Origin: Bdellovibrionaceae bacterium UBA6502
GTDB taxonomy: Bacteria > Bdellovibrionota > Bdellovibrionia > Bdellovibrionales > UBA840
DNA length: 64,000 bases
Assembly (NCBI GenBank): GCA_002436415.1
Contig: DJMA01000007.1
Location: 17,912-81,911, forward strand
Reading direction: 5' to 3'
The notes beneath the pieces were generated by a model. The model made no database searches. It had not been told where the DNA came from and saw only the letters and a program-made list of their open reading frames with translations. Positions 56,465 to 56,704 of the stretch are shown here, piece after piece. How positions within the stretch are numbered: the first letter of the stretch is position 1; the number at the start of each line of letters is the position of its first letter. The translations under genes and the position numbers were made by a program.

Positions 56465-56704
56465 TTAGCTCATGAAATCGTGAGCACGAACAGTTTTACG
56501 TCCGTTAGCTTCAGCACGCTTAGTAGCTTGCTCGATAAGTAGGTAAACCCACTCATTCAAACCTTCAATAGCATCAGCAGATACGTTTACATCTGACTCT
56601 TTAAGAGCAGATTTTACTTTGCTACCAACTAAAAGCATTTCTTTAGTCTTAGCAGTTTTCTTTGCAGTAGTTTTCTTCTTAGTAGTTTTTTTCTTAGCAG
56701 CCAT
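56465..56704 (-). CDS. bacterial histone-fold DNA-binding protein (HBb/Bd0055-like) with Lys/Thr-rich N-terminal tail
   Basis: Residues 23-79 are MLLVGSKVKSALKESDVNVSADAIEGLNEWVYLLIEQATKRAEANGRKTVRAHDFMS. They align helix1-L1-helix2-L2 with archaeal HMfB, including the GRKT[VI]-x3-D signature. Residues 1-22 are MAAKKKTTKKKTTAKKTAKTKE. An AAGGAG Shine-Dalgarno sequence lies 6 nt upstream, and the gene has its own terminator. Confidence 0.75.
   Translation of the reverse strand: MAAKKKTTKKKTTAKKTAKTKEMLLVGSKVKSALKESDVNVSADAIEGLNEWVYLLIEQATKRAEANGRKTVRAHDFMS

Follow-up and report, generated by a model that had tools for sequence, protein, structure and literature searches.

The 64,000-nt stretch of contig DJMA01000007.1 from Bdellovibrionaceae bacterium UBA6502 (positions 17,912 to 81,911), which is called here the window, carries the gene of a small histone. 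According to the open reading frame (ORF) list and the sequence, the gene is a 79-codon ORF at 56465..56704 on the minus strand, with an ATG start (56702-56704) and a TAA stop (56465-56467), and its product is MAAKKKTTKKKTTAKKTAKTKEMLLVGSKVKSALKESDVNVSADAIEGLNEWVYLLIEQATKRAEANGRKTVRAHDFMS. The analysis indicated that this protein is probably a sequence-nonspecific and putatively abundant nucleoid protein belonging to the face-to-face (FtF) type, similar to the histone HLp of Leptospira perolatii, and that its tail would act as a DNA-binding arm. Two regions can be distinguished in it: a disordered Lys/Thr/Ala-rich tail (codons 1-22, 56639..56704; MAAKKKTTKKKTTAKKTAKTKE, net charge +9) and an alpha3-truncated histone fold (codons 23-79, 56468..56638). 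The original prediction, a note made from the sequence alone, had described a histone fold with a eukaryote-style tail without giving the strand of the ORF; the ORF is real, and both parts of the description are evaluated below.

The histone fold and its class

In a single-sequence phmmer search against the PDB the protein matched solved histones, i.e., HLp (9QT0) with an E-value of 7.7e-12, HBb (8CMP, 8FVX) with 2.8e-6, HTkC (9F2C) with 1.7e-5 and HmvA with 6.5e-3. With a family profile made from 66 aligned homologues (hmmsearch), the E-values were 1.8e-19 for HLp, 3.8e-12 for HBb, 5e-8 for HTkC, 1e-4 for HmvA, 2e-3 for HHoB and 0.013 for Methanopyrus HMk. The same 66 homologues were used for the AlphaFold2 (AF2) model, which had a mean pLDDT (predicted local distance difference test) score of 84.5, with values of 93-97 for residues 21-79 and of 51-55 for residues 1-20. 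The AF2 monomer showed the three-helix (short, long, short), two-loop architecture of histones, with alpha1 at residues 27-35, alpha2 at 43-66 (24 residues) and a short alpha3 at 74-78, connected by loops L1 (36-42) and L2 (67-73). When this model was compared with solved structures by Foldseek, the top match was HLp (9qt0/9qt1), with a target-normalised template modelling (TM) score of 0.96, an rmsd (root-mean-square deviation) of 0.7-0.8 Å and 50% identity, followed by HBb (rmsd 0.9-1.0 Å, TM 0.83-0.88, 42% identity), HTkC and then the Asgard, NF-Y and H3 histones. The probability was 1.00 for HLp, HBb, HTkC, the Asgard HHoB, NF-Y and H3. The extended conformation of the AF2 monomer is that of the HLp chain within the HLp dimer (rmsd 0.7 Å). 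Because of the sequence matches in the PDB and of the superposition of the AF2 model on solved histones, residues 23-79 can be taken as an established alpha3-truncated histone fold, at the level of sequence and model.

The L2 motif of histones, RxTxxxxD, was present as R69-K70-T71-V72-R73-A74-H75-D76, and R69, T71 and D76 were invariant in the 66-sequence alignment; the RD clamp corresponds to R69-D76 and the RKT motif to residues 69-71. The GRKT[IV]-x3-D signature noticed from the sequence thus exists, as GRKTV-x3-D, although the chain, which had been read as ending directly behind RAHDF, has two further residues, M78 and S79. According to Schwab et al. (2024, PMC11390915), the alpha3 of alpha3-truncated histones has only 3-4 residues, and their alpha2 lacks 4-5 residues compared with that of nucleosomal histones. 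As in that type, alpha3 is here a single turn (74-78), and the chain ends at residue 79.

Two kinds of alpha3-truncated histones have to be considered. The FtF histones conserve K16, R48, N52, R54, T56 and D61 (hidden Markov model positions), and bacterial dimer histones such as HBb are without R48 and N52, which make the dimer-dimer contacts (Schwab et al. 2024, PMC11390915). The FtF signature was complete in the protein from the window, with matching spacing, as K31, R63, N67, R69, T71 and D76. R63, N67 and R69 were invariant in all 66 aligned homologues, and R63 and N67 occurred in 120/120 close homologues; among 147 more distant cluster representatives, 134 had them. In the crystal of HLp, which forms stable tetramers and wraps ~60 bp of DNA (Hu et al. 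2025, PMC12701072), R49, S52 and N53 of one dimer contact R55, T61 and F63 of the other. These positions map to R63, A66 and N67 against R69, H75 and F77, so that R49, N53, R55 and F63 of HLp are kept, and S52 and T61 are replaced by A66 and H75. The DNA contacts of HLp (A13/S14/K15, K17, K21, T56 and T57; PMC12701072) correspond to G27/S28/K29, K31, K35, K70 and T71; here S14, K15, K17, K21 and T57 have identical counterparts (S28, K29, K31, K35 and T71), the basic contacts being kept, and the canonical RKT lysine, K70, is present in addition, i.e., the nucleosomal-type Lys is retained in GRKT, in contrast to KRTT in HLp. HLp (9QT0, 9QT1, 9QT2) also resembles the protein in its short alpha2, in an alpha3 of one turn, in the RD clamp and in its organisation as a single-gene unit. 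It is from another phylum, is two residues shorter at the C-terminus and has, as studied, ~7 disordered N-terminal residues instead of a 22-residue tail of charge +9. HTkC of Thermococcus kodakarensis (9F2C) and the archaeal FtF histones have the same fold and belong to the torus-type tetramer class (40-44% identity); they are generally tail-less (PMC11390915) and end at the position equivalent to D-F.

The main alternative is that the protein is a bacterial dimer of the HBb (Bd0055) type, to which a tail was added, and whose homodimers bend DNA or coat it end-on without forming tetramers. HBb of Bdellovibrio bacteriovorus (8CMP, 8FVX, 9EZZ) is from the same phylum, is also alpha3-truncated, has the GRKT-x-x-x-D motif in common with the protein, and is significantly similar to it (E ~3e-6, Foldseek TM 0.83-0.88). 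The genome is from Bdellovibrionota, with "Bdellovibrionales bacterium" metagenome-assembled genomes (MAGs) as the best named matches of its RuvB (74% identity), and a relative of the histone exists in Pseudobdellovibrionaceae; in addition, the chain extends past the D-F position, unlike those of HLp and HTkC. However, HLp outscored HBb both with the single sequence (48.2 versus 30.7 bits) and with the family profile (72.9 versus 49.5 bits), and the residues by whose absence the bacterial dimers are defined, R48 and N52, are both present and invariant as R63 and N67, where HBb, a DNA-bending dimer without a lysine-rich tail, has S and D. Hence the likeness to Bd0055/HBb claimed in the original prediction stands for the truncated alpha3, but the nearest characterised relative is HLp (50% identity and 48.2 bits, compared with 42% and 30.7 bits for HBb). 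Since R63, N67 and R69 are present and invariant and HLp scores above HBb, the sequence comparisons point to the FtF, HLp-like class rather than to the HBb class, and we consider a tailed HBb-type dimer unlikely.

Several observations weigh against an HLp-like histone. The check proposed with the original prediction, a match to the Pfam histone profile PF00808, gave nothing useful: in Pfam the protein matched CENP-S only, with E = 0.056, and PF00808 matched just 3 of the 66 family members at E <= 0.1. With the NCBIfam archaea_histone model (NF043032) the score was 20.7 bits, compared with a cut-off of 50. The failure of these models reflects their low sensitivity for alpha3 histones and is no evidence against the fold, whose assignment is based on the sequence and structure matches in the PDB instead. 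As for the class, we infer the FtF tetramer only from conserved interface residues, which the protein has in common with HLp. HLp and HTkC end exactly at the Phe-equivalent position, as do about half of the more distant representatives; in the protein and throughout its close clade the chain continues past this position for another 2-5 residues, and this C-terminal extension might affect an interface to which the end of the chain contributes. Moreover, Schwab et al. (2024, PMC11390915) assign the FtF histones of Bdellovibrionota to the class Bacteriovoracia and the dimer type to Bdellovibrionia, and the nearest named genome with a relative of the histone is a Pseudobdellovibrionaceae MAG.

The lysine-rich N-terminal tail

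The earlier counts of 10 Lys and 6 Thr in residues 1-22 were correct. This segment has a net charge of +9 and is predicted to be disordered, with the low pLDDT values given above for residues 1-20. The search for homologues gave 607 matches at E <= 1e-3, and the tails were surveyed in the 120 best of them. Tails of at least 12 residues were present in 118, of which 114 were basic, and the median tail length and net charge were 22 residues and +8. The tail-bearing homologues were from Bdellovibrionota, Myxococcota and other groups. The relatives that could be named or located included those from a Pseudobdellovibrionaceae MAG, Kofleriaceae, Haliangium ochraceum and a Myxococcales MAG; in an Acidobacteriota MAG the tail had just 3 residues, and the relatives from Woesearchaeota were tail-less. 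The bias that the tail itself introduces was removed in a search of 1.84 billion cluster representatives with the core only, whose 150 best matches comprised 119 singlets and 31 doublets. At least 12 residues preceded the core in 63 of the 119 singlets, and at least 31 of these 63 N-termini were clearly basic; among the other long N-termini, some seem to result from mis-called starts, with an internal MAKKK hidden in them. Positively charged tails have been described for most bacterial FtF histones (Schwab et al. 2024, PMC11390915), and Hocher et al. (2023) reported the lack of long tails for "most bacterial singlets", with no stronger claim. The tail is therefore not unusual in its family but a published, class-wide feature, and the view that bacterial histones are tail-less, by which this one had been singled out, is out of date.

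The tails vary more than the cores: on cores with 96-98% identity the tails had only 64-82% identity, with insertions and deletions (indels). The mean identity of the tails to that of the query was 0.57, compared with 0.49 after each tail had been shuffled. The pooled composition was 0.40 K, 0.23 A, 0.11 T, 0.06 S, 0.04 P and 0.02 R, and the core was preceded in all 120 cases by an acidic residue, which was E in 115 and D in 5. Even in genomes with 72% GC, Lys accounted for ~35-40% of the tail and Arg for ~1-2%. As judged from these alignments, the tail is conserved in composition and without positional conservation, and selection for lysine specifically is implied, because the Lys and Arg proportions were held in the 72% GC genomes. 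This retention of Lys against the GC pressure also speaks against a neutral origin of the "easy come, easy go" kind, as proposed for some prokaryotic tails (PMC10919886).

The term "eukaryote-style" was thus appropriate in part. It holds for the positive charge, the disorder and the richness in Lys, which the N-terminal tails of eukaryotic core histones and of Asgard histones likewise have, with no detectable homology to the tail of this protein. It does not hold for the positions: tails of the eukaryotic type are positionally conserved, with defined modifiable residues, and the identity of 0.57 was close to that of shuffled tails. Eukaryotic tails also contain Gly and Arg, of which this tail is almost devoid, and its composition (K/A/T/S/P) is nearer to that of H1-like or HupB/HupS-like repeats.

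Conservation of composition only would argue against a site-specific histone modification code. A reading of this kind, in which the tail is a regulated platform where Lys acetylation and/or Thr phosphorylation tunes DNA binding, as in the signalling of eukaryotic tails, is in our opinion quite unlikely. The large excess of Lys over Arg (0.40 versus 0.02), even at 72% GC, would fit a need for acetylatable residues, and KK doublets beside Thr or Ser are the setting in which acetyl-phosphate-dependent acetylation is reportedly favoured in HupS and HupB. In HupS, acetylation of the lysine-repeat domain lowers the affinity for DNA ~2-fold, and the deacetylase CobB1 counteracts it (PMC11229371). 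However, no Lys or Thr position was conserved, with tail identities near those of shuffled tails and indels between nearly identical cores, and in the relatives the Thr residues were largely swapped for Ala, Pro, Ser, Gly or Asn. Furthermore, the histone gene has no writer or eraser gene next to it (the GNATs of the window are 39 and 54 kb away and its low-molecular-weight (LMW) tyrosine phosphatase 16 kb away), and an excess of Lys over Arg is typical, too, of disordered DNA-binding regions that are dynamic and unmodified. The possibility that the Lys/Thr tail is a physiological switch, in which reversible acetylation (enzymatic or by acetyl-phosphate) and/or Thr phosphorylation toggles the nucleoid between a compact and an open state, appears similarly improbable; such a switch may operate, e.g., between a predator's attack and growth phases or in myxobacterial sporulation, and the sole observation that hints at it is the Lys-over-Arg preference held against the GC pressure. 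If true, it would mean that tail-based chromatin regulation exists on a true histone fold in bacteria and evolved independently of eukaryotes.

The signals of translation were those of the long form. A consensus Shine-Dalgarno (SD) sequence, AAGGAG (56711..56716, minus strand), is located 6 nt 5' of the long-form ATG, as had been noticed from the sequence, and an SD preceded the tail-form start in the relatives L001, L002, L003 and L005; the SD was AAAGGAG before the long form in the Pseudobdellovibrionaceae MAG relative, and G-rich ahead of a GTG start in Kofleriaceae-type relatives with 72% GC. In these GC-rich relatives the GC content at third codon positions (GC3) of the tail was 0.89-0.90, the same as in the core, and Lys was encoded by AAG in 13 of 14 codons, which is a coding signature, the opposite of AT-rich drift. 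Since the SD serves the long form here and in the relatives, and the tail has the GC3 of coding sequence, the tail is, on this sequence evidence, real and translated. It could be argued that Met23 exists, that AAA/AAG-rich upstream DNA is expected in a host with 38% GC, that an "easy come, easy go" origin was proposed for the tails of Leptospira histones and HupB (Hocher and Warnecke 2024, PMC10919886), and that the authors of the HLp work took the short form on SD grounds (PMC12701072). A start at Met23 or an accidental, neutral read-through of AT-rich DNA is nevertheless very improbable, given that no SD lies ahead of Met23, that the tail is in frame in 118/120 homologues, that position 23 is Val, Ile, Leu or Ser rather than Met in many of them, and that the tails of 72% GC genomes kept ~35-40% Lys with a GC3 of 0.9 and AAG codons, contrary to compositional drift.

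Other N-terminal arrangements were also seen in the family. The 31 doublets among the 150 best cluster representatives (P0241-P0249 and others) are natural fusions with two alpha3 folds per chain, of 114-150 residues with a linker of ~10 residues, which score as well as or above the singlets against the histone core. Four doublet-type proteins (P0256, P0258, P0372 and P0385) have an N-terminal hydrophobic, signal-peptide-like segment, e.g., MRHLAISLALVLFASATSFAAGAQRKPKE followed by IVVVGSKVK, which suggests that they may be exported or membrane-anchored histone-fold proteins. In P0310, of 650 residues, the histone fold is at the extreme C-terminus, and the tail of P0377 is a 74-residue H1-like repeat, (AAKKAPAKK)n; both show that the N-terminal additions of the histone family are highly variable.

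Proposed mode of DNA binding

In the preferred reading, that of an HLp-like nucleoid protein with a DNA-binding tail, two handshake homodimers would pair face-to-face into a closed tetramer, with ~60 bp of DNA wrapped around it by analogy with HLp. The dimer-dimer contact would be made by R63, N67, R69 and F77, and the core would contact the DNA backbone through S28, K29, K31, K35 and T71, all of them HLp positions that are kept, and through K70. Four tails of charge +9 would project from the tetramer as non-specific, multivalent DNA-binding arms, which would raise the affinity, would neutralise charge on DNA that is wrapped or lies nearby, and may form bridges between duplexes. The function of the tail would then depend on its length and charge and not on specific residues, and the conservation pattern of the tail fits such a bulk electrostatic, multivalent arm, as judged by analogy. 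The N-terminal tail of the Deinococcus HU protein (DrHU) is known for low-affinity, multivalent DNA alignment (bioRxiv 10.64898/2026.08.18.745388). In general, D. radiodurans HU (N-terminal), mycobacterial HupB/MDP1 and Streptomyces HupS (both C-terminal) carry disordered, K/A/T/S/P-rich extensions on a small dimeric DNA-binding fold, and these mediate low-affinity multivalent DNA binding or bridging, modulated by acetylation in HupS; they differ in that the fold that bears them is the unrelated HU/IHF fold, and in that they are usually longer (50-140 residues).

Bacterial histones are a young field: the descriptions of HBb date from 2023-24, and that of HLp from 2025. To our knowledge, the sole FtF bacterial histone that has been studied biochemically has almost no tail, and the positive tails typical of the class have never been tested. 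The locus and its >600 relatives form a clade in which selection maintains a Lys-rich tail of 20-60 residues, attached to a core that hardly varies. This clade includes the cultured Haliangium ochraceum, and it is thus tractable for asking what a histone tail does without a nucleosome or known modification machinery. Tailed bacterial histones are already in the literature, and the value of the present findings is therefore incremental. Their novelty is modest and consists of the conservation of the tail in composition only, the retention of Lys against the GC pressure, and the short, clade-specific C-terminal extension, which might affect tetramer closure.

Transcription unit and genomic surroundings

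The histone gene is followed, 25 nt past its stop codon, by an intrinsic terminator (56415..56439, minus strand), which consists of the hairpin AAAAGCCACC-TTATC-GGTGGCTTTT and TTTT; the stem has 10 bp, including 5 G-C pairs, and the scan found 4 terminator-like sites, compared with 0.4 expected from shuffled sequences. The terminator and a 139-nt gap separate the gene from the downstream acyl-CoA synthetase gene. On the other side, 232 nt separate it from the divergent ruvA, and this intergenic region contains a tentative, weak sigma-70-like match, TGGACA-18-TATGCT (56743..56772, minus strand; 9/12 matches). With 2 sigma-70-like sites in the scan and 1.2 expected by chance, the match is not evidence of a promoter. 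Since ruvA is divergent across the 232 nt, and the terminator and the gap lie before the acyl-CoA synthetase gene, the natural reading is that of a single-gene unit. Hence, among the expression signals that had been proposed, the terminator and the monocistronic, well-signalled arrangement were borne out, as was the SD, but the promoter-like element does not rise above chance level.

The window has ~38% GC. A protein identical to the histone was encoded on at least 23 metagenome contigs, many of them marine, with TARA Oceans samples among them, and the best named relatives of RuvB are those from Bdellovibrionales MAGs mentioned above; the host is an uncultured marine member of Bdellovibrionota. 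No second histone gene was found in the window by tblastn with the histone core, and the Rfam scan of the window gave only one tRNA (14355-14438, minus strand).

The neighbours are housekeeping genes (yebC-ruvC, acyl-CoA synthetase, ruvAB, lpxC, efp and tamB). Here the Holliday-junction genes are split, with yebC-ruvC at 53358-54607 and ruvA-ruvB at 56937-58547, both on the plus strand; between them lie the genes of the acyl-CoA synthetase and of the histone, in the opposite orientation. The order fadD-histone-ruvA-ruvB was shared only with the closely related Pseudobdellovibrionaceae MAG (L001), and was absent from the Myxococcota, Acidobacteriota and archaeal loci compared. A functional link between the histone and ruv was therefore rejected, the gene order being lineage synteny. 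The GNATs and the tyrosine phosphatase that had been listed for the window could be located, the former at 2356-2886 (minus strand, 54 kb from the histone gene) and 17022-17456 (plus strand, 39 kb), and the latter, of the LMW type, at 39598-40083 (minus strand, 16 kb). They lie in unrelated neighbourhoods, and, at these distances, a gene-order link to the histone was rejected as well.

Three further loci were observed in the window. The conserved cluster rimP-nusA-infB-rbfA-truB-rpsO-pnp (17748-26899, plus strand) confirms that this is an ordinary chromosomal region. A hybrid histidine kinase of the bacteriophytochrome type, 885 residues long and with its domains arranged as PAS_2-GAF-PHY-HisKA-HATPase_c-REC, is encoded at 10330-12987 (plus strand), and it represents a light sensor in a putative marine member of Bdellovibrionota. 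Finally, a 440-residue protein with an FeeM-like N-acyl amino acid synthase domain is encoded at 28259-29581 (minus strand).

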